From Acidobacteriota bacterium (GTDB lineage: Bacteria > Acidobacteriota > UBA890 > WLXD01): DNA of 64,000 bases. Shown piece after piece: positions 11,671 to 45,837 of the stretch (within the stretch, counting starts at the first letter, position 1; every line of letters starts with the position of its first letter). Made by a program: the position numbers and the translations under genes. A model generated the notes under the pieces. That model saw nothing but the letters and a program-made list of their open reading frames with translations. It ran no database searches and had not been told where the DNA came from. The stretch spans positions 5,088,001-5,152,000 of the forward strand of contig CBDFKD010000002.1 in assembly GCA_965248695.1 (NCBI GenBank), written 5' to 3'.

Positions 11671-11733
11671 GCGCTAAGACAACGCGGCTCTCGGCTTGCT
11701 ACCTCCGTGCACGAGAGCCGCGGCAAGGCCGCA

Positions 11734-12452: not shown

Positions 12453-12456
12453 CGGC

Positions 12457-13308: not shown

Positions 13309-13546
13309 CGATTCCCGGGGTGAACAATGCTCGCCGAGGGAGCGTAGATGGGGCGAACACCGGGGTCAAGAGGGTTCTATTCGCTCGGCGCGATTGGATG
13401 GTCGGCGGCGGACTGCGTCGACGTACGGTCGCGGCTCCCTCGCTGACGAGAATCAGGTGCCCGGCCTATACTTTGCTCTTGCCGGAGCCCCGGGTCGCCG
13501 GAGATCGAGCCCGGCGTCAAGCGCGCGAGCCGCAGGAGCCGAGACA

Positions 13547-16127: not shown

Positions 16128-16132
16128 GGCCA

Positions 16133-19027: not shown

Positions 19028-19253
19028 TTGACCAACATCCTCGGACGGGAGAAACGTCGACTGAACCGTCCGCAGGGTCCGTGGGCGTCAAACATCTGTC
19101 AAGAGCGCGACCCCGCCGTTTCGATGCTGTCGGCGATGGGGCGAAATGACCCGCGCCAGATTGCCTCGTATTTGGGCAGCGGGTACTCTCTGGCGCGATG
19201 CGAAGCGCTTGCCGTACCCGGCGAGCCTCCCTACAGCCCTCACCCTCTTTCGC

Positions 19254-20492: not shown

Positions 20493-20514
20493 TGCGTCGG
20501 AGCTGGAGGACCCT

Positions 20515-20817
20515 GTGCTGCTGCTGACCTGCCCCAACTGCGGCCCCAGAAACGTGAGCGAGTTTCGCTTCGGCAACGAGTACAACCCGCGCCCGGCAGA
20601 CCCCGCCGCCGTAACGGAAGCCGAGTGGGTCGACTATCTCCATCTGCGCAACAACAAGGTCGGCGTGCAGAAGGAGTGGTGGCACCACGGAACCGGCTGC
20701 GGTCTGTGGCTCCTGGCGGAGCGAGACACCAAGACCGGTGTGGTGTTGCGCACCTATCTCTGGTCCGACGCCGACGCGAATACGGATACGCAGTCAGACA
20801 CCGGGGCAGAGTCGTGA
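20515..20817 (+). CDS. soxD: Sarcosine oxidase / Mgd delta subunit
   Basis: CPNCGPR..EF and W.H..GC zinc motifs, ERDT; GGAGG SD before GTG 20515. Confidence 0.9.
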   Translation: MLLLTCPNCGPRNVSEFRFGNEYNPRPADPAAVTEAEWVDYLHLRNNKVGVQKEWWHHGTGCGLWLLAERDTKTGVVLRTYLWSDADANTDTQSDTGAES

Positions 20818-23711: not shown

Positions 23712-24415
23712 GCGCCGCCCGTCCGCGGCTACTGACACCTCTATATGGCGTTGCCGTGCGTCTCGGGGCACAGTTCGCCGATGGCGGGGCTGGCTGGCAG
23801 ATTCCCGCGAGCTACGGCGATTCGGCGGCCGAGGCCTCCGCAGTGCGAGACCGACTCGGGATCGCCGACGTCTCGGCGGATGGCAACCTGCGAATCGAGG
23901 GGGCCGCTGCCGAGGCGGTGCTGGGAACAGCATATGGACTGCGGGTGCCGGAAATCGGCGAGAGCGCCGCGCTCGGCGAGGGGCGCTGCTATCGCGTACG
24001 CACGGACCTGTTCGTGGTCACGACCCCGCCGGGCGCCGAAGGGGCGGTGGACGATGCGATCGGCTCAGCCGCGCAGGCGGCGGATCAACGGGTCACGGTG
24101 ACCGTGATGACCCATGGACAGGCCAACATCCGTATAATCGGTGCGCGCGTGACCGAGTTGATGAGCAAGCTGTGCGGCCTGGACTTCGGCCCCGCAGCAT
24201 TCCCGAACGGAGCGGTCAGGCGGACGAGCTTTGCCAAGACGGGGCAGCTGATCATTCGTCGCGACCTGGACCGACTCCCCGCCTTTCTGGTGATCGGGGC
24301 TCGGTCAGCTGCACCCTACGTTTGGGAGACGATCATGGAGGCCGGCGAGGAATATGGCATCACGCCAATCGGGCGGGATGCGCTGGCCGCCATCGCTTCA
24401 GACAGCATCGCTTAA
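23708..24415 (+). CDS. soxG: Sarcosine oxidase / Mgd gamma subunit (GcvT-like)
   Basis: LCGLDF..AFP, RSAAPYVW motifs; GTGA overlap with soxA. Confidence 0.8.
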   Translation: MSAARPRLLTPLYGVAVRLGAQFADGGAGWQIPASYGDSAAEASAVRDRLGIADVSADGNLRIEGAAAEAVLGTAYGLRVPEIGESAALGEGRCYRVRTDLFVVTTPPGAEGAVDDAIGSAAQAADQRVTVTVMTHGQANIRIIGARVTELMSKLCGLDFGPAAFPNGAVRRTSFAKTGQLIIRRDLDRLPAFLVIGARSAAPYVWETIMEAGEEYGITPIGRDALAAIASDSIA

Positions 24416-24435
24416 GACAGTACTGAGAGGGGAAC

Positions 24436-25899
24436 ATGACTGATCTTGAAACTTATGTTCGTGCCGACGGCCGCGACGAGTTGGTCAGGGAAGTTCGCAA
24501 GCAGATCGACGCGCTGGGGATCGAGTACATCTACTACCAGTTCGTATCCGTAACCGGGCGCATCGTCGGCAAGGGCGCCCCCGCGGATCACTGGGAGAAG
24601 TTCGCCGAGGATGGCTTCCAGCTGGTCTATGGCTCGACCGCGAACCTGTTCACCGATCGGCACGGCAACTACATTGGCTACGGGCCCGAATCGTCCGAGC
24701 TGGTTGGCATCCCAGATCCGGAGACCTTCGTGCAGTTGCCCTGGGAGAAGCGTATAGCGCGCGTCTTCTGTACTTGCTTCCGCAACCGCGAGGAACCAGA
24801 GAACGCCGGGGCCTTCCTGAGCTCGGACTGCCGCGGCAACGTGCGGCGTATCCACCGGCAATTCACCGCCGACCATGGGCTCGAGATGCGCGTGGGTACC
24901 GAGCCCGAGATGATGTGGTTGAAGAAGGGCGCCGACGGGCAGCCCGATGGCGGCGTCACTCGACCATTCTGCTACCACATCGATCAGTTCGAGACCCTAC
25001 GTCCGATCGTCCTGAAGGTGGTGGAATACAGCCGCGCGATGGGACTGGATATTATCCAGGGCGACCACGAAGACGCCCCTGGCCAGCTCGAGCTCAACTT
25101 CACCTACGACGATGCGCTCCGTACTTGTGATCGACTGACCACCTATCGGCAGATCTGCGCCGAGGTGGCCAAGCAGAACAACATGATCGCCTGCTTCATG
25201 TCGAAGCCGTTCATGGGCGTCTCGGCATCAGGTTGCCACCACAACGTCTCCCTGTGGCGCGGTGGCGAGAACACGGTCAAGGCGCTTGGACACGATCCGT
25301 TGCCCGGCATGGAGGACAGCTTCGTCCATCGTAAGGGCGGCGAGAACGTCTTCTTGCCCGATGCGGGGCAGCGTGTTCCATCCGAGCTCGGACTGCAGTG
25401 CCTGGGCGGACTCAAGGAGCATTTGCCAGCGTTGACGGCGATCGGCTGCTCGACAGTGAACTCGTACCGCCGCCTCTGTGAGACTGGCTTCTGGGCACCG
25501 ATCTTTGCCGACTGGGGATTCCAGAACCGTACCTGTGGCTTGCGGGTCTCGTCGCCCGATCGGTTCGAGTATCGCGCCGTCGACTCCATGGTGAATCCGT
25601 ACTTGATGGCGGCCGGAATCCTGAAGGCGTTCGACGACGGTATTCGGACCAAGGCAGACCCCGGTCCGCCGGAGGAGCGCAACATCTACGACGCCATCGA
25701 AGAAGGCAAGGAGGTGGTGAAGCTGCCCTTGTCGCTCGGTGCCGCCCTGGATACGCTTGCCGCGGACGAGGTCGTCAAGTCGGCGATGCCCGACGAGATG
25801 TACCGGGTCTTCATGCACTACAAGACCGATGAGTGGGAGCGTTTCCTCGCTCAAACCACTGAATGGGACCTCGAAAACTACTTGGACTGCTTGCCATAG
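24436..25899 (+). CDS. Glutamine synthetase-family ligase (putative gamma-glutamyl-amine synthetase)
   Basis: GTEPE, DHEDAPGQLE, FMSKPF..SASGCHHN, NSYRRL, NRT, FEYR motifs; directly upstream of mgs-like genes. Confidence 0.88.
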   Translation: MTDLETYVRADGRDELVREVRKQIDALGIEYIYYQFVSVTGRIVGKGAPADHWEKFAEDGFQLVYGSTANLFTDRHGNYIGYGPESSELVGIPDPETFVQLPWEKRIARVFCTCFRNREEPENAGAFLSSDCRGNVRRIHRQFTADHGLEMRVGTEPEMMWLKKGADGQPDGGVTRPFCYHIDQFETLRPIVLKVVEYSRAMGLDIIQGDHEDAPGQLELNFTYDDALRTCDRLTTYRQICAEVAKQNNMIACFMSKPFMGVSASGCHHNVSLWRGGENTVKALGHDPLPGMEDSFVHRKGGENVFLPDAGQRVPSELGLQCLGGLKEHLPALTAIGCSTVNSYRRLCETGFWAPIFADWGFQNRTCGLRVSSPDRFEYRAVDSMVNPYLMAAGILKAFDDGIRTKADPGPPEERNIYDAIEEGKEVVKLPLSLGAALDTLAADEVVKSAMPDEMYRVFMHYKTDEWERFLAQTTEWDLENYLDCLP

Positions 25900-25921
25900 C
25901 TGTTGGCGGAGATAGCTAACG

Positions 25922-26869
25922 ATGTGTGGAATCGCCGGGATCATTCACCGCAACAAGACGGGCAACGTCGGCGCCGAGATGACCGGCATGCTCCAGGCCA
26001 TGAAGCATCGTGGTCCGGACTCGACCGGGTTCGCGTTTTACGGTGTTCCGAACGAAGACGAGTTGCTGCTGCGCTTCAAGGTAGCGGAGCATGAGGATCT
26101 TGAGACGGGTTTCGAGATCCACGATGCGATCAAGCGACGCCGCGCCGAGGTGGACGAGCGCATCGAATCGATGGGCGGCGATATTCAGGTGGCCGAGGCG
26201 CCGACCGAGTATGCCTTCCTCTACCGCCTCCGTTTTGATCCCAAGCTCGAGAGCCTGGCGCGTCTGGCCGACTATATCGAGGACGTCGACGGTGCCGAGG
26301 TGCTGTCGATTGGCAACGCGCTGGAGGTCGTCAAGGATCTGGGCGACGCCACCGAGGTGAGCAACCAATACGAGATGGGCAAGTTCGTTGGCACGCACGC
26401 CATCGGCCACACGCGCATGGCCACCGAGTCCGACGTCGATATCTGCTCGGCGCATCCGTACTGGGCCTACCCGGTCAGCGATGTCTCGGTGGTGCACAAC
26501 GGCCAGCTGACCAACTACTGGAGCAAGCGGCGCGAGCTGGAGCGCAGCGGCCACCGATTTCTCTCCGACTGTGATTCAGAGCTCATTGCCGTGTATGTCG
26601 CCGAGCTGACCGAGCGTGGGAAGTCGCTAGAGGAAGCGATGCGTCAGTCGGTGGACGAGCTCGACGGCGTATTCAGCTATCTGGTTGCCACCTCGGACGG
26701 GCTCGGTCTGGCCAAGGACACCATGGCCGCCAAGCCCATGGTGCTGTACGAAGGCGACGACTGCATCGTCATGGCCTCGGAGGAAGTGGCGATCCGGACC
26801 GTGTTCCAGGAGGAGATCGACACCTTTGATCCGTACGCCGGGGATGTACGTGTCTGGAGCACCAACTGA
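25922..26869 (+). CDS. mgsA: Class II glutamine amidotransferase, N-methylglutamate synthase subunit A-like (GlxB)
   Basis: MCGIAG Ntn Cys, HRGPDS, GHTRMATES, HNGQLTN, DSE. Confidence 0.78.
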   Translation: MCGIAGIIHRNKTGNVGAEMTGMLQAMKHRGPDSTGFAFYGVPNEDELLLRFKVAEHEDLETGFEIHDAIKRRRAEVDERIESMGGDIQVAEAPTEYAFLYRLRFDPKLESLARLADYIEDVDGAEVLSIGNALEVVKDLGDATEVSNQYEMGKFVGTHAIGHTRMATESDVDICSAHPYWAYPVSDVSVVHNGQLTNYWSKRRELERSGHRFLSDCDSELIAVYVAELTERGKSLEEAMRQSVDELDGVFSYLVATSDGLGLAKDTMAAKPMVLYEGDDCIVMASEEVAIRTVFQEEIDTFDPYAGDVRVWSTN

Positions 26870-27681
26870 TGACTGATGTCCACGCGGAGCCACTGAAGGG
26901 CCGTTCCTACAAGACCATGTTCCGGGCCGAGGAAGGAGAAAACCTCGTCTATCCGGACAGCGTCGAGGTCGACTTCGATAGCCGTGCTGAATTCGATGCT
27001 GCCGAGATGGACACCAGCTCGATCAACAAGCGCATCCGTGAGCTCATGGGCGAGGGCCACGGTCACATCGTGGTCCTCAATCCGGGCGCCAAGCATTCCC
27101 TCGGCGTGGGTATCCTCAATCGGCTGCAGCTGGATTTCGATGGATCACTGGGCTACTTCGGGATCGGACTCAACGATGGTCCGAACGTACGCATCCGGGG
27201 ACGAGTCGGCTGGTCATGTGGAGAGAACATGATGGCCGGTACCATCGTCATCGAAAAGAACGCCGGCTCGTGTTTCGGCGCCGCGATCCGCGGCGGCGAT
27301 CTCGTCTGCAGGGGAGACGTCGGAGCGCGAACCGGGATCAACCAGAAGGGTGGAACCATCATCGTAGGTGGCCGAACCGGAATGCTCTCGGGGTTCATGA
27401 TGCAGCGCGGCCGCATGATCTTTCTCGGCGACGCTGGCGAGAGCCTCGGTGACTCGATGTATGACGGCACCATCTTCGTCGGCGGCGAGATCGCGTCGTT
27501 GGGAATCGATGCGGTACCCGGAGAGATGACCGATGTCGAGGCGCATTGGTTGCAGCGCAAGCTCGATCTCTACGGCCTCAAAGCACCCAACGGCGTCGAG
27601 AAGCTGCAGAAGATCGTTGCCGGCAAACAGCTTTGGAACTACGACAACCTCGAACCTACTGAAAAGAAGATCGTCCTGTGA
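26869..27681 (+). CDS. mgsB: GXGXG beta-helix protein, NMG synthase subunit B-like (GlxC)
   Basis: ENMMAG, GARTGI..KGG, GFMMQRG, LGDSMYDG. Confidence 0.78.
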   Translation: MTDVHAEPLKGRSYKTMFRAEEGENLVYPDSVEVDFDSRAEFDAAEMDTSSINKRIRELMGEGHGHIVVLNPGAKHSLGVGILNRLQLDFDGSLGYFGIGLNDGPNVRIRGRVGWSCGENMMAGTIVIEKNAGSCFGAAIRGGDLVCRGDVGARTGINQKGGTIIVGGRTGMLSGFMMQRGRMIFLGDAGESLGDSMYDGTIFVGGEIASLGIDAVPGEMTDVEAHWLQRKLDLYGLKAPNGVEKLQKIVAGKQLWNYDNLEPTEKKIVL

Positions 27682-29021
27682 CTGATAACGGCAAGCGCAA
27701 CAAGGACGTCCTGGGTGAGAACTTTCTGTTCAAGCCCAGCGTTATCGACGACATCCACATCAAAGCGGATCTCGGCCGCTACCGCATGCGCGGCATGGCG
27801 CTGTTCAAGACCATCCCTACCTGGGATGACCTGACGTTCCTGCCCGGCACGCTGACGCGCTTCGTGATCGAAGGCTATCGCGAGAAGTGTCTGACGAAGA
27901 CGGTTCTCGGCCCGAAGGCCAAGCGCCCGCTGGAGCTCGATATCCCGATCTACATCACCGGCATGAGCTTCGGGGCGCTTTCGTACGAGGCCAAGGTAGC
28001 GCTGGCACGCGGTGCGACGATGGCTGGAACCGCCACTTGCTCGGGGGAGGGCGGCATGCTGCCGGACGAGCGCCGTTACTCGTCGAAGTGGCTCTACCAG
28101 TGCATCCAGTCGCGCTACGGGTTCAACCCGCATCATCTTCGACTCGCTGACGGCTGCGAGTTCTTCATCGGACAGGGCTGCAAGGTGGGGCTTGGCGGGC
28201 ACCTCATGGGGCAGAAGGTCACCGATCAGGTGGCCGAGATGCGCAATCTGCCGGCCGGAATCGACCAGCGCTCACCGGCGAGACATCCGGACTGGCTGGG
28301 ACCGGACGATCTGGCTCTGAAGATCGACGAGATCCGCGAGGCGACCAACGGGGAGATCCCCATCCAGCTCAAGCTCGGATCGGCGCGTGTCTACGACGAT
28401 GTTCGCATGGCCGCCAAGACGGGTCCGGATAGCATCTACCTCGACGGTATGGAGGGCTCGACGGGAGCCGGTCCGCATCTCGCCACCGAAGAGACGGGAG
28501 TGCCGGGAATCGCTGCCATCCGGCAGGCGCGCCACGCGCTCGATGACGTGGGCAAGACCGGGGAGATATCGCTCGTCTACGCCGGCGGTATCCGCAACGG
28601 CGCCGACGTCGCCAAGGCCCTGGCGCTGGGTGCCGACGCCATCGCGATTGGCACAGCCGCTATGGTGGCGCTCAACTGCAACCGCGACATTCCAGAGGCC
28701 GACTTTGAGGGAACCATCGGCGTGCCGGCGGGTTACTGCTATCACTGCCACACCGGTCTGTGCCCGGTCGGTGTCGCCACTCAGGATCCGGAGCTGCGCA
28801 AGCGGCTGGATCCCGACGAGGCGGCGATCCGTGTCTACAACTTCCTGCATACGCTGGCCATCGAGTGCCAGATGATGGCGCGCGCCTGCGGCAAGACGAA
28901 CGTGCACTCGCTGGAGCCCGAAGACCTGGCGGCGTTGACCTCCGAGGCGTCGGCCATGGCCGAGGTGCCGCTCGCCGGCACCCGATACACCGTCGGCCAT
29001 CCGGAAATGACCCGGTTCTGA
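27678..29021 (+). CDS. mgsC: FMN-binding glutamate synthase-family protein, NMG synthase subunit C-like (GlxD)
   Basis: GMSFGALS, RSPARHPDWLGPDDL, GGIRNGADVAKALALGAD, CYHCHTGLCPVGVATQDP. Confidence 0.85.
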   Translation: MTDNGKRNKDVLGENFLFKPSVIDDIHIKADLGRYRMRGMALFKTIPTWDDLTFLPGTLTRFVIEGYREKCLTKTVLGPKAKRPLELDIPIYITGMSFGALSYEAKVALARGATMAGTATCSGEGGMLPDERRYSSKWLYQCIQSRYGFNPHHLRLADGCEFFIGQGCKVGLGGHLMGQKVTDQVAEMRNLPAGIDQRSPARHPDWLGPDDLALKIDEIREATNGEIPIQLKLGSARVYDDVRMAAKTGPDSIYLDGMEGSTGAGPHLATEETGVPGIAAIRQARHALDDVGKTGEISLVYAGGIRNGADVAKALALGADAIAIGTAAMVALNCNRDIPEADFEGTIGVPAGYCYHCHTGLCPVGVATQDPELRKRLDPDEAAIRVYNFLHTLAIECQMMARACGKTNVHSLEPEDLAALTSEASAMAEVPLAGTRYTVGHPEMTRF

Positions 29022-29059
29022 CAGACCCGATCCTGAGCGACCTGATTCCGAGAGACGCT

Positions 29060-29470
29060 GTGAACGACGAAGCCTCGAAGCCAGACGAAGAGCAGGACGT
29101 CGACTACTACCTCAAGTCGAGCGGGCTGGATACCGACCGCGAGGTCGAGATCGGCCAGCACATCGGCTACCGGTACGACGTCAACCTCGTTCCCGACTAC
29201 TCGCTGCTCACTCCGTTGCTGAAGAAGTACATCGAGCTGATGGGCTGGGACGATCTCAACTGGATGGAGGACGTCCATATGGGCTACGAGGAAGGCCGTT
29301 CGGCGGTCTTCGATCGCAACATCAACGGTTGGGTTGTCGTGCCAGACGACATGGAACTGCCTGACTCGCAACAAGAGCGAGATATGGTAGCGCGCGAGTT
29401 ACTGTTGAAGTTCCAGATGTCGCCGCAGCATCCGCTCTACGACCTGGGCGAGAGACACAAGAAGTTCTGA
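29060..29470 (+). CDS. Uncharacterised acidic 136-aa protein
   Basis: Host-like codon usage; fills the gap between mgsC and the ACAD-fold gene; no family recognised; start GTG 29060 is tentative. Confidence 0.75.
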   Translation: MNDEASKPDEEQDVDYYLKSSGLDTDREVEIGQHIGYRYDVNLVPDYSLLTPLLKKYIELMGWDDLNWMEDVHMGYEEGRSAVFDRNINGWVVVPDDMELPDSQQERDMVARELLLKFQMSPQHPLYDLGERHKKF

Positions 29471-29529
29471 CGTCCAGGGTGGTCGCGCGGCGGCCAGCAT
29501 CGGTCGACGTTAACGAATGCGAGGCTGAC

Positions 29530-30927
29530 TTGAGCGACACCAAGAAGTGGGGCACAGAAGAGTTCTGGGGGCTGGCATATGATTGGGATCCGCAGTGGAT
29601 CCTGACGCCGGAACAGCAAGGGCTCCAGGCGGCCTTGATCGACCTGTGCCAGACCTCCATGCGTGACAACGCCGTGGAAAGCGATCGCGAGCTGATCTTC
29701 CCGCGCAAGAACTTCGAAGCGCTTGCCTCGCTCGGCCTGCTGGGCCTTATGGTGCCGAAGGACCTCGGCGGCCGCGGTGAGAACCACACGTGCTTGGCGA
29801 TGGTGGTCGAGACGATCGCGCGGTACGGCTGCCCGAGCACGGCGATGTGCTACACGATGCACATCGGCGCGATGGCGGCGGCGATGCTCCGGGCTCACGG
29901 CAGCGAGACCATCCAGAACCTGATGCGGCGGCTCGATGACGAGGTGCTGGTCGGCACGCTGTCGTATTCCGATCCCGAGACCGGTTCTCACTTCTGGTAT
30001 CCGTTCTCGTCCAGCGCCGAGCGTGTTGACGGCGGCTGGAAGGTCAACAAGAAGGCATCCTGGACGACCTCGGGCGGGTTCGCTGACTGGTACATCATCC
30101 AGACCACCAGCCCGGACTTCGATGGCGACTACTCGGATCTGTCCTGCTTCCTGATCATGGCCGACGAGATCAAAGCAGATCCGTCCACTTGGGACGGCCT
30201 CGGTTTGCGCGGCAACCAATCAGGACCCCTGTACGTGGAGGACAAGACGATCCCCGAGGACCGCCTCATCGGGCCGATCGGCGATGGTGCGAGCTCGAAC
30301 GACGAGGCGGTCGACCCCTTCTTCCTGCTGTGCTCCTCCTCGTGCTGGAACGGCATCTCGATGGGTCTGATCGATATCACCAAGGGGCACACGACCAAGA
30401 AGAAGCATGTCGACGTGGGAATGCGAGTGTGCGATTACCCGACGATTCAGGACTACGTCGGCGAAGCAGTGATCGACACGAACACGTCGCGCGCCTTCGT
30501 CTATCAGCTGGCCTCGGCGATGGACAAGAAGACCGATGACTGCGACTGGTCTCTGCACGAGGATCTCTCGGTATTGCCGCGGTCGACCGTCTTGCACTGG
30601 ATGTGGCAGGTGAAGTTCACCGCTGCCAAGAACGTTGCCCACGTGGCCGACAAGATGCTCCACGCCTGTGGTGGCACGGGTTACAAGCCGGCGCTCGGTA
30701 TCGAGCGATACCTTCGCGACGGCAAGGCGGGTTGGGTCATGGGGCCGACCAACGAGGTGTTGCGCCAGTTTGTCGGCAAGGCGGTGCTCCTGGGCTTCGA
30801 CTCGCTGGACTACTGGAACCAGTCGATCAACGAGCGGGCGCTCCACAACGAGATCAAGAAGATGGACGCCGCGGCCAAGAGCGCGCTCGCCAAGCAGCTG
30901 CTCGCGGAGGCCGAGGAATCGCAGTGA
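29530..30927 (+). CDS. Acyl-CoA dehydrogenase-fold flavoprotein (atypical)
   Basis: GLLGLMVPKDLGG, SDPETGS, K.W.TSG, GLGLRGNQSG, GGTGY..IERYLRD motifs; TTG start after GAGG. Confidence 0.88.
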   Translation: MSDTKKWGTEEFWGLAYDWDPQWILTPEQQGLQAALIDLCQTSMRDNAVESDRELIFPRKNFEALASLGLLGLMVPKDLGGRGENHTCLAMVVETIARYGCPSTAMCYTMHIGAMAAAMLRAHGSETIQNLMRRLDDEVLVGTLSYSDPETGSHFWYPFSSSAERVDGGWKVNKKASWTTSGGFADWYIIQTTSPDFDGDYSDLSCFLIMADEIKADPSTWDGLGLRGNQSGPLYVEDKTIPEDRLIGPIGDGASSNDEAVDPFFLLCSSSCWNGISMGLIDITKGHTTKKKHVDVGMRVCDYPTIQDYVGEAVIDTNTSRAFVYQLASAMDKKTDDCDWSLHEDLSVLPRSTVLHWMWQVKFTAAKNVAHVADKMLHACGGTGYKPALGIERYLRDGKAGWVMGPTNEVLRQFVGKAVLLGFDSLDYWNQSINERALHNEIKKMDAAAKSALAKQLLAEAEESQ

Positions 30928-33269
30928 TCCAGTCGCAGCTCGATGGGCCGCGATGGGCCGCGGGGGGCCTACTTCACCAGATCCCCGGTAGGGAGCGCTA
31001 TCGAGTCGCCGGCGGCGGCGCCACGGTCGTGGCACTGGCGGCCGGCGATCGCATCGACATCACCGACGTCGAGGGCGGCCAGCGCTGTGAGCTGGCGGTG
31101 TTCTCTCCGACCGGCGGCGAGGACAGCGCAGCACTCAACGCGGCTCCCGACAGCCAGCTGGGCGTGCTGGGTATCGCTCAGGCAAGCCGCGAGGGCGATG
31201 CGGGCGCCGCGGTGGCGTCGCTGCTGGCGCACGGTATCGATCCGCGCGGAGCTCCGGCGCTACAGCTGTTTCGGGGCGACGGGCCCGCTGGCGCACAGGA
31301 GTCGTTCACCGCCGAGCGCGACGTCGTCTGTATCGTCGGCGCCCCCGGCGGTCCCATGCGTGTCGATGCGCAGGATCCACCCACCGATCTCGAGATGATC
31401 ATCCAACGTGCCCGGGTGACCGAGACCCCGGAGACCCCACTACCCGCCCCACTCGGCGATATGCGGATCGACCTGCGGGTGGAGCGTGCCGGGGCGCGCG
31501 CCTACGAGGTGAAGGCCGGCGAGTACATTCAGGTGATCGACGTTGCTGGTCAACAGTGCTCGGATTTCCTCGCATTCCGGTCCGATGCCCTCCAAGACGG
31601 GGTGGAGAAAGGGCTGGACCCCACTGCCACCCGCACTTTCATGGGTGCGGCGTATCCCGGGCCCGGCCTGTACTCGAAATTCTTCGACCCGGATCTACAG
31701 GCGCTTGTCGAAGTCGTTCGCGATACGGTCGGCCGCCACGACACCTTCGGCCTGGCATGTACGGCGAAATACTACGAGGACATGGGGTACTTCGGTCACG
31801 CCAACTGTTCCGACAACTTCAACGCCGAGCTGGATCCGTTCACCATCGCGCCGCGCAAGGGTTGGCCGGCGATCAACTTCTTCTACAATACGCGCATCGA
31901 CGACGACAACGTCCTTTACCTCGATGAGCCGTGGTCGCGACCCGGCGACTACGTCTTGCTTCGCGCCCTGACCGATCTTGTTTGTTTGACTTCGGCCTGT
32001 CCCGACGACATCGACGCTGCCAATGCCTGGAATCCCACCGAGGTTCACGTTCGTGTGTATCCGGCCACGAGCTCGTTCTCGATGGGGATGGCACATCGCA
32101 TGACCGCTGACTCCGAGCCGAAGCTGACGCGCGAGACCGGGTTCCACCCTCGAACTTCGGCGCTGACTCGTAAGTTCACCGACTACAGCGGCTACTGGCT
32201 GGCGACCGAGTTCACCGAGCACGGCCCGGTCCAGGAGTACTACGCCTGCCGCGAGCGCGCCGTGGTGATGGATCTGTCGGCGCTGCGCAAGTTCGAGGTC
32301 CTGGGTCCGGATGCCGAGGCGCTGATGCAGGCGACCCTGACACGTAACGTGCGTCGCGTCGCTGTTGGCCAGGTGTCGTATACCTCGATGTGCAACGAGA
32401 CCGGTGGCCTGCTGGATGACGGTACGCTGTTCCGGCTAGGCGCGGACAACTTCCGCTGGATCGGAGGTAATGCTACGGATGGCCTCTGGTTGCGTGAGCA
32501 GGCGGAGCAACGTCGGCTCAACGTACGGGTGAAGTCGTCGTCCGATCAGCTGCACAACATCGCGCTTCAGGGCCCGCGCAGCCGTGACATCCTGCGCGAT
32601 GTCGTCTGGACATCTCCGACACAGCCCAGCATCGACGAGCTCAAATGGTTCCGCTTCACCATTGGACGCGTGGCGGCCGCTGACGGCACGCCGCTGCTGG
32701 TATCGCGGACCGGCTACACGGGCGAGCTGGGGTACGAGATCTGGTGCCATCCGGAGGATGCGGTCGCAGTCTGGGATGCGATCTGGGAAGCCGGTGAGCA
32801 GCACGAGCTCACCCCGCTTGGCCTGGACGCGCTCGATATCCTGCGTATCGAGTCGGGACTGATCTTCCCGGGCTACGAGTACGACGACCAGGTGGATCCG
32901 TTCGAGGCGGGAATCGGATTTACCGTCGACCTCGACAACACAGACGACGATTTCGTCGGGCGCTCCGCCCTCGCCGAGCGCAAGGCCCATCCGCAGAGGC
33001 AGCTGGTGGGGCTGGAGCTCGACGGCAACGAAACGGGGGGGCACGGCGATGGTGTCTACGCCGGCCGCAGTCAGATCGGGGTGGTCACCAGCGGTACACG
33101 GTCACCCATCCTGAGGAAGAACATCGCCCTTTGCCGATTGGCCAAAGAACATGGCGCCATCGGCACGAAGTTGGAAGTCGGCAAGCTCGACGGGCATCAG
33201 AAGCGCATCGCAGCAACCGTCGTGAGGTTTCCGTTCTATGACCCTGAGAAAGAACGCCCTCGCAGTTGA
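30924..33269 (+). CDS. tdm: Trimethylamine N-oxide demethylase (DUF1989 + GcvT fusion)
   Basis: G.QCSDF, RHDTFGLAC-x15-C with His at +13 and a third Cys 64 residues later (TSAC), matching my recollection of Tdm metal-ligand spacing; C-terminal aminomethyltransferase domain. Confidence 0.88.
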   Translation: MIQSQLDGPRWAAGGLLHQIPGRERYRVAGGGATVVALAAGDRIDITDVEGGQRCELAVFSPTGGEDSAALNAAPDSQLGVLGIAQASREGDAGAAVASLLAHGIDPRGAPALQLFRGDGPAGAQESFTAERDVVCIVGAPGGPMRVDAQDPPTDLEMIIQRARVTETPETPLPAPLGDMRIDLRVERAGARAYEVKAGEYIQVIDVAGQQCSDFLAFRSDALQDGVEKGLDPTATRTFMGAAYPGPGLYSKFFDPDLQALVEVVRDTVGRHDTFGLACTAKYYEDMGYFGHANCSDNFNAELDPFTIAPRKGWPAINFFYNTRIDDDNVLYLDEPWSRPGDYVLLRALTDLVCLTSACPDDIDAANAWNPTEVHVRVYPATSSFSMGMAHRMTADSEPKLTRETGFHPRTSALTRKFTDYSGYWLATEFTEHGPVQEYYACRERAVVMDLSALRKFEVLGPDAEALMQATLTRNVRRVAVGQVSYTSMCNETGGLLDDGTLFRLGADNFRWIGGNATDGLWLREQAEQRRLNVRVKSSSDQLHNIALQGPRSRDILRDVVWTSPTQPSIDELKWFRFTIGRVAAADGTPLLVSRTGYTGELGYEIWCHPEDAVAVWDAIWEAGEQHELTPLGLDALDILRIESGLIFPGYEYDDQVDPFEAGIGFTVDLDNTDDDFVGRSALAERKAHPQRQLVGLELDGNETGGHGDGVYAGRSQIGVVTSGTRSPILRKNIALCRLAKEHGAIGTKLEVGKLDGHQKRIAATVVRFPFYDPEKERPRS

Positions 33270-33277
33270 GGAAATCG

Positions 33278-34618
33278 ATGAGCTCCGTTCCTGAAGCAAG
33301 CAAGTACGTCGTCATCGGTGCCGGCATCCATGGTCTGAGCACCGCCTACCACCTAGCGCTCGAGCTCGAGGCCCGAGGGCACGGGAGCGGCGCCGACATC
33401 ATCGTCATCGACAAGGAAGGCGTTGGTGCGGGTGCGTCCGGGATTGCTTGCGGCGTGATCCGCAACAACTATTTCCAGCCTGCCATGCGCGAGCTCATGG
33501 CGCACAGCGTCGAGGTGTGGGATAGCGACCCGGAGGCATACAGCTACCACCCGGTCGGCTACATGCAGATCAGCCCGGCAGCGATGGAGTCCGACGTCGG
33601 CCAGATCTATGAGCAGCAGAAGGCGATCGGCTACGAGTCAGAGTTCGTCGTCGGCGCGGCTGAAGCCGACAGGTATATGAAGGGGCTGTTCCACGACTGG
33701 AAGGCGGCCGGGATCACATCAGTATTGCACGAGAAGAAGGGCGGCTACGCCAACAACATGGCGTCGATGCGCGGCCTCGCCACCAAGGCCGAAGGGGCTG
33801 GCGTCACGATCCACGCCGGCGTGACGGTGACCGGGTTCCAGTACACGGATACCGGAATCAGCGCCGTGGAAACCGACCAGGGGACGATCCGCACCGACTA
33901 CGTCGTGGTGGGTGTGGGCCCCTGGGTGAAGCACATCTGGGAGATGCTCGACCTGCCGAAGACCATTACGGTGAACGACAACGGCACTCTGCACGAAGAC
34001 GTCCGGATGTGGCGCTACTGGTGTCTGCAAGAGGGCACGCTGGGGGTCGACCCGGAACTGCAACGGACGAACGCCGGCGAGATGCCTCCGGTTGTGCATC
34101 TGGATACCGACGCGCCGTTGTACTCGGATGCCGACGGGTCGCTGATCACCGAAGAGATGTGGGGTATCTACTACAAGCCCGACTTCTCGTTCGGCGGTGT
34201 GCAGGGAGGCGCCATGCCCTACAAGGTCGACAAGGACCCCGACGACGTGGCGGTCGATCCGTACGGACCGAAGTCGCCGGATTTCATCGTCGGCGAGGAC
34301 TTCGCCAACATGTGGTGCTCGGCGCTTGCCTTTTGCCAGGAGCGCTTTGTCGGCAAATCGGGACTGTTCCGTGGCGAGGAGCCCTCCGGCGGGATCGGCT
34401 CGTTCACCGCCGATAGCTTCCCGGTTTTCGACGTGTTCCGGGGGAACTGCTATTTCGTTGCCGACTCCAACCACGGCTACAAGATGCTCGGGGTGGGTAA
34501 GCTGGTGGCTGCCGAGATTGCCGGCGATCGGAGCGGGCTGCTGGAGCCGTTTCGCTTCTCGCGTTATGCCGAGGGAAAGCTGCATCCGGTGTCCAACAGC
34601 CCGTATCCCTGGAGCTAG
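33278..34618 (+). CDS. FAD-dependent oxidoreductase, DAO/sarcosine-oxidase family
   Basis: VVIGAGIHGLSTAYHL, GASGIACGVIRNNY, DSNHGYKM. Confidence 0.85.
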   Translation: MSSVPEASKYVVIGAGIHGLSTAYHLALELEARGHGSGADIIVIDKEGVGAGASGIACGVIRNNYFQPAMRELMAHSVEVWDSDPEAYSYHPVGYMQISPAAMESDVGQIYEQQKAIGYESEFVVGAAEADRYMKGLFHDWKAAGITSVLHEKKGGYANNMASMRGLATKAEGAGVTIHAGVTVTGFQYTDTGISAVETDQGTIRTDYVVVGVGPWVKHIWEMLDLPKTITVNDNGTLHEDVRMWRYWCLQEGTLGVDPELQRTNAGEMPPVVHLDTDAPLYSDADGSLITEEMWGIYYKPDFSFGGVQGGAMPYKVDKDPDDVAVDPYGPKSPDFIVGEDFANMWCSALAFCQERFVGKSGLFRGEEPSGGIGSFTADSFPVFDVFRGNCYFVADSNHGYKMLGVGKLVAAEIAGDRSGLLEPFRFSRYAEGKLHPVSNSPYPWS

Positions 34619-34713
34619 CGGCGGGAGCGGATTGCGCGGTATCGGAGCCAGTGCAGGGGCGGTGACGGCTTCGGCGAAGACAACGACCGTTTGACTCAGG
34701 CTATCGAGGAACC

Positions 34714-36105
34714 ATGGAAAACGAGCTCAGCGCGCTGACCGTCATCTTCACGGAGTTCTACTACTGGGTCTGCATCGTGCTCATGTTCCTCATCCACGTC
34801 GGCTTCTGCCTGTACGAGGTCGGCGTGTCGCGTCGCAAGAACATGATGCACACGCTGATGAAGAACGCGATGGTGATTCCGCTGATCACGGTGGCGTTCT
34901 TCTTTGTCGGCTGGTGGATCTACTTCGCCTTTCAGAATGGCCCCGGTATTGCCGGCGGGCTCATCCCGGCGCCGTTCGCGCTGCCGTGGAGCGAGCTCAT
35001 GGGCACCCACATGGGCGGCCAGCCGGCGCAGGCGGCGTTGACCGCCGGCGACACAGCGACCTGGGCGCGTCTGAACGGGGTGTTCTTTGGGGCGTTTCTG
35101 CTGTTTTCCTGGACCTGCGCCTCGATCCTGTCCGGGGCGGTCATCGAGCGCATTCGCTCGAGTGCCTTCTGGCTGTTCGCCATCATGCTGGGCTCGATCA
35201 CCTGGGTCATCGACGCCTCCTGGGGCTGGTCGGGCGAGGGCTGGATGGTGCGCCTGCTGGGCTACCACGACGCCTACGCATCGGGCGTGATCCACGCGAT
35301 CAGCGGCGGATCGGCACTCGCTGTTCTGTATCACCTGGGGCCGCGCATCGGTCGGTTCCGGTCTGACGGCTCGGCGCGAGCGTTCCCGCCACAGAACACC
35401 TGGCTGGTGATCATCGGCCTGTTCATGATCTACACCGGCTTCTGGGGCTTCTACGCTGCCTGCAATATCCCGATTATCGACATCGATCCGGACTCCGCCC
35501 GCACGTTCTTTGCGGCGACGACGATCTACCTCACGCCGACCACGCTGAGCGCCATCACCTTCAACTTCCTGCTGTCGCTCGCGGGCGGTCTCATGGCCGG
35601 CTACTACGTCTCCAAGGGCGATCCTTACTGGACATTCTCCGGTGGCCTCGCCGGCATCATCACTGCTTCCGCCGGCAACGACCTCTATCATCCGTTGCAG
35701 GCCATGTTGATCGGGGCTTTCGGGGTGGTGTGCCTGTACCGGTTGCACCACTGGGTGGAGAAGAAGTTCAAGATCGACGATGCGGTCGGCGCGGTGGCGG
35801 TACATGGTTACGCAGGTGTCCTCGGCGTGGTGATCGCCGGGTTCGTGCTCTGGGGTTATCCGAGCTCGCCGAACCCGGAGTTCGCCAGCATCACCCCCTG
35901 GGGCCAGATCGCCGGCGCCTTCATCATGTTCTTCGTGCTGGGGTTCGCGCCGTGCTTCGTGCTCGGGGCGGTGCTGAAGAAACTGGACATGCTACGTATC
36001 CCGCACGCCATCGAGCTCGCGGGTCTGGATCATCAGATGCTGGCTGACGAGACGGCGGCGTCCTTCGACCTGGTGGTCGAAGAGCTCCGCGTCGCCGGGA
36101 GTTGA
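34714..36105 (+). CDS. amt: Ammonium/methylammonium transporter (Amt family)
   Basis: About 11 TM; GF.LYE.G, SGAVIER, HDAYASGVIH and DDAVGAVAVHG twin-His segments. Confidence 0.9.
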   Translation: MENELSALTVIFTEFYYWVCIVLMFLIHVGFCLYEVGVSRRKNMMHTLMKNAMVIPLITVAFFFVGWWIYFAFQNGPGIAGGLIPAPFALPWSELMGTHMGGQPAQAALTAGDTATWARLNGVFFGAFLLFSWTCASILSGAVIERIRSSAFWLFAIMLGSITWVIDASWGWSGEGWMVRLLGYHDAYASGVIHAISGGSALAVLYHLGPRIGRFRSDGSARAFPPQNTWLVIIGLFMIYTGFWGFYAACNIPIIDIDPDSARTFFAATTIYLTPTTLSAITFNFLLSLAGGLMAGYYVSKGDPYWTFSGGLAGIITASAGNDLYHPLQAMLIGAFGVVCLYRLHHWVEKKFKIDDAVGAVAVHGYAGVLGVVIAGFVLWGYPSSPNPEFASITPWGQIAGAFIMFFVLGFAPCFVLGAVLKKLDMLRIPHAIELAGLDHQMLADETAASFDLVVEELRVAGS

Positions 36106-36109
36106 GACA

Positions 36110-36379
36110 ATGCAGACAGGACTGATCGAGAACTGGACCGGGAACCCGCTGGATATCGGTCCGATGTACCCGTTTGTTGGCATGGAGATGGCCCTTTTTG
36201 TGGTGTGCGCTGCGCTTGCCATCGTCTACACGGTCTGGCAGCTGAAGTTCGAGTCGCGCACTTACGACGAGGAAGCGGCCGCGCTGGCGGCACCGTCCGA
36301 TCTGCAGGACGCCATCGTTGCCGGCGCACCGCCGTGCTACGAGCACGATGAAGCGAGGGTGCTCGACGACGAGGGCTAG
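36110..36379 (+). CDS. Small single-TM protein downstream of amt
   Basis: IENWTGNPLDIGPMYPFVG followed by one TM helix; starts 4 nt after the amt stop. Confidence 0.75.
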   Translation: MQTGLIENWTGNPLDIGPMYPFVGMEMALFVVCAALAIVYTVWQLKFESRTYDEEAAALAAPSDLQDAIVAGAPPCYEHDEARVLDDEG

Positions 36380-36918
36380 CGGTCCTGCCGCCACGCCTTA
36401 CCCCAGACGGGGCTGAAGGCGAGCACCTTGATCTCGGGCGGTGGACAGGCGTTGAACAGGTGGTTGTGCCAGTAGGCCGCCTGATGGTTCGCGTCTACGT
36501 GTGGCAGCTCCTCGACAGCGCACGGTAGACCGTAGGCGCGGGCTCCCTGGGCGAAGGCCAGGGTGCACTCAGCGTGCTCGAGAACCTCCGATGCGATCGC
36601 CGAATCGCTGGCGAACTGCGCCGTCAGCATTCCCGAGAAGCGCTCCGGGTGGTTGTAGTACTCCGACGACAGCAGCTTGATGCCGCTGTCGTAGCGTTTC
36701 TTCGGGTCCGGCGTTTGACGGATGATGTGGCGAAACAAGCCGGTATGTTCCTCGGGCTCGATTTCGGTCAGCAGCACGGTGATCTCGCAAATCAGGCTGC
36801 CGTCGGGCCGTGCGACGCCGGGGCGCATCCCCGGGCTCGGGGCACCGCCGCGCAGCCGCACGACCTCCTTGCGGACCCGACACTGCCAGGCGACGAACTC
36901 TTCTTGCAGGCTTGTCAT
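36376..36918 (-). CDS. Hypothetical protein (FVAWQCRVR motif)
   Basis: Protein-like sequence from MTSLQEEF (36918); stop shares CTAG with the convergent gene; divergent from gmaS. Confidence 0.7.
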   Translation of the reverse strand: MTSLQEEFVAWQCRVRKEVVRLRGGAPSPGMRPGVARPDGSLICEITVLLTEIEPEEHTGLFRHIIRQTPDPKKRYDSGIKLLSSEYYNHPERFSGMLTAQFASDSAIASEVLEHAECTLAFAQGARAYGLPCAVEELPHVDANHQAAYWHNHLFNACPPPEIKVLAFSPVWGKAWRQDR

Positions 36919-37048
36919 TGCATTGACGGCTGCTGCTGCTCCAGGACGTTGATTAATGTCGACGACACGGTATTGTCGCTCAACGCCAGTGCGGTTGCGA
37001 TCGGGTGGAGGCCCGCTAGGTACCAAGAGACTTTGATCGGTGGAGACC

Positions 37049-38383
37049 ATGACAGGCAAAGACGCGGCAGGCTTCTTCGAGAAGAACGGGGTGAAGTTCG
37101 TCCTCGCGCAGTTCGTCGACATCCACGGCGTGGCTAAGACGAAGGCGGTTCCGGCAGCGCACTATGAGGACATTCTCAGCGACGGGGCCGGGTTCGCCGG
37201 CTTCGCCGTATGGGGCCTCGGGCAGGAGCCGCACGATCCGGATTTCATGGCGGTTGGTGATCCAGACACCCTGAGCCTGGTGCCGTGGCAAGAGGGCTAC
37301 GCGCGGGTCGTGTGCGTCGGCAACGTGAACGGCGCGCCGTGGCCGCTGGATACGCGTCACATCGCCGGGCAGCAACTGGCCCGCATGGCCGAGCGGGGTT
37401 GGACGTTCAACACCGGCATCGAGCCGGAGTTCATGCTCCTGCAGCGCGACGACAGCGGCTCCCTCTCGCCGGCCGATCCCACCGATCGACTCGACAAGCC
37501 CTGCTACGACTACAAGGGCCTGTCGCGCAGCCGGATCTTCATCGAGAAGCTCGTGGGCGCACTGATGTCGGTGGGTTTCGACGTCTACCAGATCGACCAC
37601 GAGGACGGCAACGGTCAGTTCGAGATCAACTACACCTACACCGACGCGATGACCTCTGCGGATCGGTACGTATTCTTCCGCATGGCCGCCGGCGAGATCG
37701 CCCGCGAGCTCGGCGTTATCTGCTCTTTCATGCCCAAGCCGGCTACGCGGCGCACCGGTAGCGGCACCCACTTCCACATGTCGATCGACGATGCCGATGG
37801 CACGCCGCTGTTCGGTGACGAGTCGGATGGGCGCGGCCTCGGACTGTCAAAGCTCGCCTACCATTTCCTGGCCGGCCTGTTGGAGCACGCCCCGGCGCTA
37901 GCGGCGCTCTGTGCGCCCTCGGTCAACTCCTACAAGCGCCTGGTTGTCGGCAACACTCGGTCGGGAGCGACCTGGGCGCCGGCCTACATCTCATACGGCG
38001 ACAACAATCGCTCCAGTATGGTGCGCGTACCGCACGGGCGGCTCGAGCTACGGCTTCCCGACGGTAGCTGCAACCCATATGTGGCGACCGCTGCCATCGT
38101 TGCCGCTGGGCTGGACGGAGTCGATCGCCAGCTCGATCCCGGCGAGCCGCAGAATATCAACCACTACACGACCCCGATCGACGAGCTCAAGAAGCTCGGG
38201 GTCGGCATCCTGCCGCAGAGCCTGGGCGCCGCACTGGACGCCCTGGAGGCCGACGCGATGTTTCGCGAGCAGCTAGGCGAGAGGTTCATCGCCGAGTTCC
38301 TCGAGGTCAAGGAGACGGAGTGGATCGAGTATCAGCGCCACGTCTCCGACTGGGAGGTGGATCGCTACCTCGAGTACTACTAG
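37049..38383 (+). CDS. gmaS: Type III glutamate-ammonia ligase / gamma-glutamylmethylamide synthetase
   Basis: [55 protein letters not shown]. Confidence 0.85.
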
Positions 38384-38419
38384 TGGGTTGTAGAGCCTCC
38401 ACGACAGGGGGCTAGTCGA

Positions 38420-39682: not shown

Positions 39683-40100
39683 GGTGATACGGGCTACCGA
39701 GATCCTTCTCGACGGCGAGTGCCGCGGCGAGACGCTGGTCCTGGAAGAGCCCTTGAGCTTCTGGGGCGGCCTCGATCCGAAGTCCGGCCGCATCGTCGAT
39801 GAGCATCACCCGCAAACCGGCACCTGTATTGCCGGGCGAATTCTCGTCATGCCGGGCACGCGCGGTAGCACCAGTTCGCCAGGCGCGCTGGCCGACGCAC
39901 TCCAGCGCGGCAAGGGGCCGGCCGCGGTGCTCCTGCCGGCGGGGAACGTCACGATTCTGGTGGCGGCGATGATCGCTCGAGAGCTCTACGGCACGGAATT
40001 ACCGGTGCTGGTCGTCGATCGAGGCGACTATCTCGGTCTGCGAACCGGGCAGCTCCTGACGATTGCCAACGGCAGCATCATGGAGGTCGACGAGCTCTGA
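39672..40100 (+). CDS. Aconitase X swivel (small) subunit, DUF126
   Basis: PLSFWGGLDP.SG.I.D.HHP, RGSTS. Confidence 0.9.
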   Translation: MAAEVIRATEILLDGECRGETLVLEEPLSFWGGLDPKSGRIVDEHHPQTGTCIAGRILVMPGTRGSTSSPGALADALQRGKGPAAVLLPAGNVTILVAAMIARELYGTELPVLVVDRGDYLGLRTGQLLTIANGSIMEVDEL

Positions 40101-45831: not shown

Positions 45832-45837
45832 GAGGTG

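Follow-up and report, generated by a model that had tools for sequence, protein, structure and literature searches.

A divergent member of the glutamine synthetase (GS) family, GS488, encoded in a 64,000-nucleotide stretch of an Acidobacteriota bacterium genome (contig CBDFKD010000002.1, positions 5,088,001 to 5,152,000; this whole stretch is called the window), is the entry enzyme of a conserved variant of the glutamate-mediated pathway for methylated amines, linked to the trimethylamine N-oxide (TMAO) demethylase Tdm and, in the loci we collected, never to the monooxygenase Dmm. Its gene belongs to a conserved cassette made up of an upstream GntR regulator, the oxidoreductase DAO2, GS488, the three subunits MgsA'B'C' and a small protein. 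The cassette stands by itself, has been widely transferred and runs alongside the canonical N-methylglutamate (NMG) route of GmaS and MgsABC. A large share of organic nitrogen is present as methylated amines, which are also aerosol precursors, and the accepted aerobic pathway requires Dmm for the conversion of dimethylamine (DMA) to monomethylamine (MMA); the GS488 cassette may be the missing way for some bacteria to use DMA. Directly observed are the identities of the genes, the conservation of the cassette, its linkage to Tdm and to the trimethylamine enzyme Tmm, the lack of Dmm nearby and the catalytic residues of GS488. The cassette appears to be uncharacterized so far, as literature searches, with subscription journals mostly outside their reach, found no description of it.

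In the window, which has a G+C content of about 64%, the plus strand carries a packed, codirectional block of 17 kb in the order mgdABCD-like, GS488, mgsA'B'C', an open reading frame (ORF), a gene of the acyl-CoA dehydrogenase (ACAD) fold, tdm, DAO2 and amt, with spacing that ranges from a 4-base overlap to a 95-base gap. The first-pass annotation of this DNA had placed two GS-family ligases in one methylamine island: a GlnT/GmaS-like gene at 37049, and a clearly different one at 24436 heading an mgsABC-like block, with Tdm, an ACAD-fold gene and a DAO-family gene between them. Pfam and NCBIfam matches bore this layout out, with the glutamine amidotransferase (GATase), GXGXG and flavin mononucleotide (FMN) Glu_synthase domains of the block lying at 25922-29021. 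The genes, in order, are as follows.

19146..20492, plus strand: MgdA-like, SoxB-family flavin adenine dinucleotide (FAD) subunit (Pfam DAO, 7e-69; TIGR01373 soxB family, 486 bits, cutoff 529); ATG 19254 is a possible true start
20440..20817, plus strand: MgdB-like, SoxD-family delta subunit (Pfam SoxD, 6.5e-28, residues 28-107); the ORF begins upstream of the probable real start
20625..23711, plus strand: MgdC-like, SoxA-family alpha subunit with a GCV_T folate domain (Pfam GCV_T, Fer2_4, SO_alpha_A3; TIGR01372, 922 bits, cutoff 1164); the family match runs from residue 69 on
23708..24415, plus strand: MgdD-like, SoxG-family gamma subunit (Pfam SoxG, 1.5e-9; GCV_T, 2.3e-22); its GTG start overlaps the MgdC stop
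24436..25899, plus strand: GS488, predicted divergent GS-family ATP-dependent glutamate-alkylamine ligase, 487 amino acids (Pfam Gln-synt_C, 2.9e-81)
25922..26869, plus strand: MgsA', class II (N-terminal nucleophile, Ntn) GATase-like subunit (Pfam GATase_6/7)
26869..27681, plus strand: MgsB', GXGXG-domain subunit (Pfam GXGXG, 5.4e-13)
27678..29021, plus strand: MgsC', FMN-binding glutamate-synthase-domain subunit (Pfam Glu_synthase, 3.4e-90)
29060..29470, plus strand: small conserved protein of 136 amino acids (no Pfam or NCBIfam match)
29479..30927, plus strand: ACAD-fold flavoprotein (Pfam Acyl-CoA_dh_N, _M, _1)
30924..33269, plus strand: Tdm, TMAO demethylase (NF053776, 1218 bits, cutoff 1100; Pfam DUF1989, GCV_T, GCV_T_C)
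33278..34618, plus strand: DAO2, DAO-family FAD oxidoreductase (Pfam DAO, residues 14-229 only)
34714..36105, plus strand: Amt-family (methyl)ammonium transporter (Pfam Ammonium_transp, 2.1e-54)
36376..36918, minus strand: conserved protein of about 180 amino acids between the block and GmaS (no Pfam or NCBIfam family)
37049..38383, plus strand: canonical GmaS, gamma-glutamylmethylamide synthetase of the GlnT/type III family (TIGR03105, 645.2 bits, cutoff 469.6)

To follow GS488 through other genomes, one genome per species was scanned; at least 590 stretches matched, of which at least 572 encode a relative, and the 80 best loci were retained. Neighbors were counted by tblastn with the window proteins within 10 kb of GS488, and many of the loci are short contigs. 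Twenty-three loci are cyanobacterial by their record titles; of the non-cyanobacterial ones, 32 extend for 8 kb or more on both sides of GS488 and form what we call the full subset. Virgifigura deserti SYSU D60014 (L037) and Taklimakanibacter lacteus SYSU D60012 (L069) are carriers available in culture. GS488 is 69-75% identical in all 80 kept loci, which come from at least eight phyla, and homologues 72-75% identical are named from Cyanobacteria, Chloroflexota, Acidobacteria, SAR324 and Gammaproteobacteria. The partners of GS488 recur as follows.

MgsA', directly downstream of GS488: 47 of 80 loci
MgsB': 43 of 80 loci
MgsC': 39 of 80 loci, 81-91% identical
DAO2: 37 of 80 loci, directly upstream on the same strand in 31
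Amt: 18 of 80 loci
Tdm: 17 of 80 loci
MgdA-like: 11 of 80 loci
ACAD-fold gene: 8 of 80 loci, with Tdm in 6
GmaS-like gene (at least 38% identity): 4 of 80 loci

Within the full subset (n = 32), Mgs' is present in 29 loci, DAO2 in 23, Amt in 11, Mgd in 9, Tdm in 8, the ACAD-fold gene in 3 and a GmaS-like gene in 2. Clustering of ORFs added a GntR/FCD regulator upstream of the cassette in at least 32 loci, a small protein of about 130 amino acids directly 3' of MgsC' in at least 21 of 80, and a family-less protein of about 180-190 amino acids in at least 9 of 80 plus the window; these three counts are lower bounds, and ORF picking sometimes took antisense ORFs in GC-rich loci.

The neighborhood of GS488 is rich in genes for methylated amines and free of Dmm. 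Our reference system was the set of pAMI6 proteins of Paracoccus aminophilus, for which PMC4543880 describes mutants or assignments of mgsABC-gmaS, mgdABCD, tdm, dmmDABC and tmm; in pAMI6 itself, tdm, dmmDABC and tmm1 are adjacent. The window Tdm is 54% identical to that of P. aminophilus, scores as an NF053776 equivalog and has the DUF1989/GCV_T architecture. Tmm was found in 6 of the 80 loci (L021, L030, L049, L053, L056 and L073), two of which, L021 and L056, hold Tmm, Tdm, GS488, MgsA'B'C' and DAO2 together and thus encode, on paper, a full trimethylamine route except for the step after dimethylamine. Tetrahydrofolate (THF) C1 genes (FTHFS, FolD) and GcvT proteins also recur around the loci. 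By contrast, tblastn with the pAMI6 DmmA, DmmB and DmmC queries (E <= 1e-8, at least 50% query coverage) matched none of the 80 loci and nothing in the window.

Two other candidates for a Dmm function were tried and rejected. The first-pass annotation had envisaged that Dmm is bypassed, and within the 64-kb window neither DmmABC nor a DMA dehydrogenase turned up. The only flavoprotein there with the domain layout of the trimethylamine and dimethylamine dehydrogenases (TMADH/DMADH), a 656-residue protein at 45835-47805 on the plus strand with Oxidored_FMN and Pyr_redox_2 domains, lies closer to FadH (1ps9, 5e-75) than to TMADH (8e-56), and its best NCBIfam model is mycofactocin OYE-2, at 605 bits and under cutoff. 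The idea that DmmABC is itself Mgs-like, which would make GS488 and MgsA'B'C' equal to Dmm, was also dropped: DmmD is a GcvT protein according to PMC5520151, and the pAMI6 records give DmmC as a DUF3445 protein, DmmB as a PDR/VanB reductase and DmmA as a family of its own.

GS488 scores under every NCBIfam cutoff. Its best model is that of the GmaS family, TIGR03105, which it matches at 298.5 bits in two stretches without reaching the family score (cutoff 469.6); it scores 245 bits against the GlnA model TIGR00653 (cutoff 429) and 221 against the gamma-glutamylputrescine synthetase model, and an insertion splits its Pfam Gln-synt_C match in two. The gene at 37049, taken for GlnT/GmaS-like in the first pass, proved to be canonical GmaS: the ORF spans 37040-38383, with a likely start at ATG 37049 behind a GGAG that gives the 444-residue database protein P0124, and besides its 645 bits in TIGR03105 it matches the 'Glutamate--methylamine ligase' of PDB 9qur at E 8.8e-200 and the crystallized Rhodovulum enzyme RhGmaS (PDB 7cql) at E 2.5e-102. 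The two ligases of the window share 31% identity (146 of 470 aligned positions), and GS488 is about equally far from archaeal and Bacillus GS structures and from GmaS structures.

Phylogeny separates the two ligases into well-supported clades. A 30-row ligase tree and a 45-row MgsC tree were built by a quick method, with SH-aLRT support only and some long branches flagged. In the ligase tree the GS488 clade (support 98) has as its sister GS-family genes from two plasmids, one of Ruegeria and one of Paracoccus, with a Rhodococcus gene from a similar cluster on the next branch out. These together make up a superclade (support 100) whose sister, at support 92, is the GmaS clade (support 97); the latter contains the window GmaS and that of P. 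aminophilus and excludes GS488, and PuuA and GlnA, the outgroups, fall outside both. The relatives of GS488 found on plasmids are all below 60% identity. The closest ones outside the cassette (L081, Ruegeria plasmid, 9425-18465, and L082, Paracoccus sp. TOH plasmid, 10523-16690) are 54-56% identical, and each stands beside a second GS gene; one of the two clusters further includes genes for a cytochrome P450, a ferredoxin, a type-1 GATase and an ABC transporter, the other for an aldehyde dehydrogenase and two hydrolases. Both look like uncharacterized clusters for the gamma-glutamylation of alkylamines.

The RhGmaS residues described in PMC7948447 were transferred to GS488 through HMMER alignments and a MAFFT alignment. 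The metal, ATP and glutamate core is retained (E156, E158, E212, E219, H268, E378, R365, R370 and R380), and D210, E219 and R365 correspond to the catalytic Asp177, Glu186 and Arg312 of RhGmaS, all three of which the window GmaS likewise retains. Trp353 stands in place of the Glu-flap Glu, as in GmaS, and Tyr65 in place of the ammonium-binding Asp50' of glutamine synthetase, a residue that GmaS also lacks. About 25 extra residues between H268 and R345 occur otherwise only in the sister clade, and the Asp50' loop, V64-Y65-G66, is invariant in 12 GS488 rows where GmaS has A-G-F; Y65 and G66 are also invariant in a separate alignment of 20 GS488 sequences. The two longer GS488 matches, one a DUF72 domain with half a GS domain and the other a 1457-residue protein with partial GS and partial PhyH domains, were set aside as hints to function; they are single sequences with partial domains and probably artifacts of gene models.

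Loss of both Asp50' and the Glu-flap Glu from a protein that keeps the ligase core argues for a small-alkylamine ligase over an ammonia ligase. From its sequence, GS488 is predicted to join a small alkylamine, most likely a methylated one and not ammonia, to the gamma-carboxyl group of glutamate, and to be neither a glutamine synthetase nor an orthologue of GmaS. Source records do name GS488 homologues 'glutamine synthetase', and archaeal and Bacillus GS structures match its GS catalytic domain with scores no lower than those of GmaS; even so, it is very improbable that GS488 is an extra glutamine synthetase for ammonia released by methylamine breakdown, given the loss of both residues as in GmaS, a GlnA score of 245 bits against the cutoff of 429, and the amidotransferase-type Mgs' set that accompanies it outside the cyanobacteria (29 of the 32 full loci).

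The partners of GS488 are related to, and distinct from, those of GmaS. MgsA', MgsB' and MgsC' are three adjacent genes in the window with the domain layout of MgsABC (class II GATase, GXGXG, FMN Glu_synthase), and the MCGIAG N-terminus of MgsA' indicates that the Cys1 nucleophile is kept. They are 32%, 37% and 55% identical to P. aminophilus MgsA, MgsB and MgsC, respectively. The MgsC' sequences form one very tight clade in the 45-row tree, far from P. aminophilus MgsC and from the copy in locus L019 (the parting branches measure 0.95 and 0.79 changes per column), and the second MgsC of L001 makes a third lineage. These relationships mark MgsA'B'C' as predicted paralogues, not orthologues, of the experimentally studied MgsABC. 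Upstream of GS488, the SoxB, SoxD, SoxA and SoxG families lie in one operon at scores under the sarcosine oxidase cutoffs, which is the signature of an MgdABCD set; the MgdA-like and MgdC-like subunits are 44% and 36% identical to those of P. aminophilus, values that do not settle orthology to the characterized Mgd. The longest ORF after the SoxA-like gene, 23563-24426 (plus strand), was rejected as the gamma subunit: it is in the wrong frame and has no Pfam or NCBIfam family, in contrast to the SoxG match in 23708-24415.

DAO2 is the constant oxidoreductase of the cassette. Its nearest PDB chains are N-methyl amino acid demethylating enzymes (sarcosine oxidase beta and dimethylglycine dehydrogenase/oxidase), and they match the N-terminal half only, the C-terminal half being unusual. 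An ESM Atlas search gave only generic DAO-family clusters, and tblastn against 72,556 plasmids gave no match at E <= 1e-20. The first-pass annotation had suggested that ACAD-fold or DAO-family neighbors demethylate the product of the ligase, and of these DAO2, near GS488 in 37 of the 80 loci, is the constant one. The ACAD-fold gene turns up in only 8 of 80 and is no fixed companion of GS488. Its product has Rv1679/FadE16 as its best NCBIfam family (211 bits, cutoff 600) and lacks the C-terminal catalytic Glu, the YEGT of solved ACADs aligning to MGPT (Glu to Gly), and in the window its stop overlaps the Tdm start. Further loci with ACAD homologues are L016, L045, L055, L060 and L061.

The small protein after MgsC' has 39 invariant columns in an 18-sequence alignment (homologues include L001 13155-13586 and L013 14703-15152) and may be a fourth subunit of the Mgs' enzyme; no such gene follows the canonical mgsABC of pAMI6. 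AlphaFold2 with the 18 sequences gave a mean pLDDT of 66.7, too low for a fold search, and the ESM Atlas search with this protein gave nothing usable. The protein of about 180-190 amino acids carries the motif W-Q-C-R-x-R-Q ... G-R-P-S and has homologues at, for example, L013 6037-6603 and L021 15278-15838.

We propose a route that starts with Tdm, which would split TMAO into DMA and formaldehyde. GS488 would then join DMA to glutamate as gamma-glutamyl-dimethylamide, from which the Ntn-Cys amidotransferase MgsA' would free the amine toward the FMN subunit MgsC' to give N,N-dimethylglutamate. DAO2 would remove one methyl group oxidatively to leave NMG, and the Mgd-like four-subunit dehydrogenase would take off the second to return glutamate, while the separately transcribed GmaS would serve imported MMA. 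In this scheme we infer which amine is used, that the two dimethylated intermediates form, and what MgsA'B'C' and DAO2 act on. That DMA is the substrate of GS488 by this route is a tentative reading of the sequences, held at somewhat less than even confidence, and the whole picture of a Dmm-independent, ATP-driven DMA route with a glutamate carrier, spread horizontally through at least eight phyla, is possible and slightly more doubtful.

Several loci place the GS488 cassette beside canonical genes. Canonical GmaS and GS488 occur together in the window, in L019 and in L074. In the gammaproteobacterial locus L019 the order is GS488-mgdABCD-mgsABC-gmaS, its Mgs and GmaS proteins being 50-79% identical to those of P. 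aminophilus, and in L074 gmaS and GS488 are back to back. L001, from a Latescibacterota genome, is the most similar related locus, with two Mgs sets in one array and otherwise syntenic with the window. Such neighbors, in the window, L001, L019 and L074, argue against simple redundancy, and two ligases or two Mgs sets side by side favor different substrates, most simply DMA for one of them. Locus L019 (1-21461) encodes four GS-family proteins altogether, a 531-residue form, a PuuA-like form, GS488 and canonical GmaS, together with a luciferase-like monooxygenase, an N-formylglutamate amidohydrolase and a PhyH dioxygenase.

The chief alternative is that GS488 performs the GmaS reaction, and the cassette is a second, non-orthologous NMG pathway for MMA. 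GS488 would then make gamma-glutamylmethylamide and MgsA'B'C' would convert it to NMG. DAO2 would either oxidize NMG, as a single-subunit substitute or backup for Mgd, or act at the outset by oxidizing DMA to MMA; in the latter case the cassette would still bypass Dmm, and in the former the DMA made by Tdm would be excreted or handled by genes elsewhere. By informal weighting, DMA and MMA are about equally probable as the substrate of GS488. The canonical architecture is matched by the cassette, with a ligase, three Mgs subunits and an oxidase of the N-methyl amino acid type, and several further observations weigh against DMA. All seven amine-pocket residues of RhGmaS (Tyr147, Gln175, Asp177, Glu179, Glu186, Asn188 and Lys30') are present in GS488, as Y180, Q208, D210, E212, E219, N221 and K46, and the same holds for the window GmaS. 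According to PMC7948447, RhGmaS has a Km of 27 uM for MMA and 16 mM for DMA, an approximately 600-fold preference for MMA. Canonical MgsABC is absent from the 64-kb window though GmaS is present, so MgsA'B'C' may process gamma-glutamylmethylamide and be an ordinary NMG synthase. Mgs' and DAO2 occur with neither Tdm nor Mgd within 10 kb in 12 of the 32 full loci; that most cassette loci lack Tdm and Mgd fits a self-contained MMA route with DAO2 as NMG oxidase. In L074, moreover, DAO2 sits in an apparent operon with canonical GmaS and Amt, with no Mgs' within 10 kb. Neither gamma-glutamyl-dimethylamide nor bacterial N,N-dimethylglutamate was found in literature searches to which subscription journals were mostly closed.

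The missing Dmm is itself weak evidence, because SAR11 carries Tdm without Dmm and thus shows that Tdm can do without a step that consumes DMA. In PMC5520151 (Lidbury 2017), SAR11 has tmm, tdm and gmaS and no dmm; dmmDABC is described there as lacking in SAR11 and in Gamma- and Deltaproteobacteria that are abundant in the sea, and this is called a bottleneck; an MMA route alongside Tdm without Dmm thus has a precedent there. Tdm followed by Dmm is still given as the route in a June 2026 paper (PMC13390433), and a Dmm-independent aerobic route for DMA was not found in literature searches, most subscription journals being out of their reach.

An MMA function would in turn imply two MMA ligases in the L019 array, two Mgs sets for MMA in L001 and two MMA ligases in the window island. 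It would also make DAO2 and Mgd redundant where they occur together, which is the case in the window and in six loci (L001, L017, L037, L046, L048 and L052); this co-occurrence fits two successive demethylations. The pocket residues were dropped as a discriminator between MMA and DMA, being uninformative: the P450-linked sister clade and the Rhodococcus relative have all seven as well, and the residues do not fix the substrate because these relatives stand in different gene contexts. The invariant V64-Y65-G66 loop likewise sets GS488 apart from GmaS. The first-pass suggestion of a second ligase for DMA therefore stands in part: the second ligase has its own conserved cassette, linked to Tdm and Tmm with no DmmABC near, and DMA is no more than a candidate for its substrate.

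The relatives and the cyanobacterial loci raise the question of a different amine altogether. The 54-56% identical relatives lie in clusters like those for the gamma-glutamylation of isopropylamine or putrescine (P450, type-1 GATase hydrolases, aldehyde dehydrogenase), and the cyanobacterial GS488 genes lack Mgs' and lie near a copper amine oxidase, a PhyH dioxygenase and an SBP_bac_3 protein. Four of the eight ACAD loci are of this kind, with ACAD on one strand facing the SBP_bac_3 protein and GS488, and with a Tdm-like gene, a copper amine oxidase and a PhyH dioxygenase on the ACAD strand in some loci each. A betaine-aldehyde dehydrogenase 7 kb downstream of the window block points the same way. 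GS488 might thus take ethylamine, ethanolamine, a hydroxylamine-type or another alkylamine, the nearness of Tdm reflecting a general island for scavenging organic nitrogen. We regard this as unlikely, since neighbors specific to methylated amines recur (Tdm in 17 of 80 loci, Tmm in 6, Amt in 18 and Mgd-like in 11, with THF C1 genes), the Mgs-type partner is known from methylamine metabolism only, and the cassette has neither a type-1 GATase hydrolase nor an aldehyde dehydrogenase.

The proposed DMA function of GS488 can be set against four known systems. GmaS (RhGmaS, 7cql; 9qur) has the same GS fold and ATP-dependent gamma-glutamyl ligase core, shares with GS488 the catalytic Asp177/Glu186/Arg312 equivalents, the seven pocket residues, the Trp for the Glu-flap Glu and the lack of Asp50', and is likewise linked to an Mgs-type three-gene block. 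GS488 differs from it by an identity of about 31%, a TIGR03105 score under cutoff, the insertion of about 25 residues, the V-Y-G loop, a separate clade whose nearest relatives are alkylamine-type ligases, and partners (Mgs' paralogues, DAO2, small protein) other than canonical MgsABC. The canonical NMG pathway of P. aminophilus pAMI6, Methylocella silvestris and Ruegeria pomeroyi follows the same logic with the same domain families, in that a ligase works with a glutamate-synthase-like enzyme split into GATase, GXGXG and FMN subunits and with a dehydrogenase for N-methyl amino acids, and is also linked to Tdm and Amt; the cassette departs from it in the added constant DAO-family enzyme and small protein and in its distant Mgs', and its loci lack the dmmDABC that pAMI6 holds together with tdm and tmm1.

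DmmDABC (heme/PAS DUF3445, PDR/VanB reductase and GcvT subunits) has no homology to the cassette, which would fill the same DMA-consuming position with ATP and a glutamate carrier in place of O2 and NADPH. Two catabolic routes by gamma-glutamylation, the Puu pathway of Escherichia coli (PuuA/PuuB/PuuC/PuuD) and the Ipu pathway for isopropylamine in Pseudomonas, likewise use a GS-like ligase to attach glutamate to the amine, with the oxidase acting afterwards. PuuB is also of the DAO family, yet the loci hold no detectable PuuB match. Unlike Puu and Ipu, the cassette lacks a type-1 GATase hydrolase and an aldehyde dehydrogenase, both of which stand beside sister-clade ligases, in clusters with P450, type-1 GATase and ferredoxin genes.

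Around the island, the window holds further genes. Directly after GmaS, with 36 bases between, follows an AcnX pair:

38420-39682 and 39654-40100, plus strand: AcnX large and small subunits, resembling cis-3-hydroxy-L-proline dehydratase at a score under cutoff

GmaS and the AcnX genes (37049-40100, plus strand) form an unusual trio that looks like one operon. The betaine-aldehyde dehydrogenase at 43013-44473 (plus strand) scores over both equivalog cutoffs, which indicates that choline or betaine catabolism adjoins the methylamine island. Farther downstream, at a distance of about 13 kb from the island, lie two diverged copies of an IS3-type transposase gene (rve, HTH_21) in inverted orientation (49267-50014 and 50881-51628), whose arms of 748 nucleotides are 76% complementary. 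An LVIVD-repeat protein (54613-55815, minus strand) and an ankyrin-repeat protein (56026-57459, plus strand) lie beyond it, and genes for RNase Y and YmdB are close to the window start, which points to an organism outside the proteobacteria.

Dmm is missing from many Tdm-carrying bacteria, according to PMC5520151, and the GS488 cassette, which can be cloned, makes a specific candidate for the missing dimethylamine step, lying by Tdm and Tmm and never by Dmm in the loci. If GS488 does act on DMA, much of the proposed marine 'dimethylamine bottleneck' would be removed, as the carriers include marine Gammaproteobacteria and SAR324, groups reported to have tdm and lack dmm; two of the route's metabolites would also be new, and the split glutamate-synthase family would gain an activity. 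Even as a second MMA route, the cassette would be missed by gene surveys based on gmaS, because GS488 scores under the family cutoff, and it would add a DAO-family enzyme and a small protein to the pathway.

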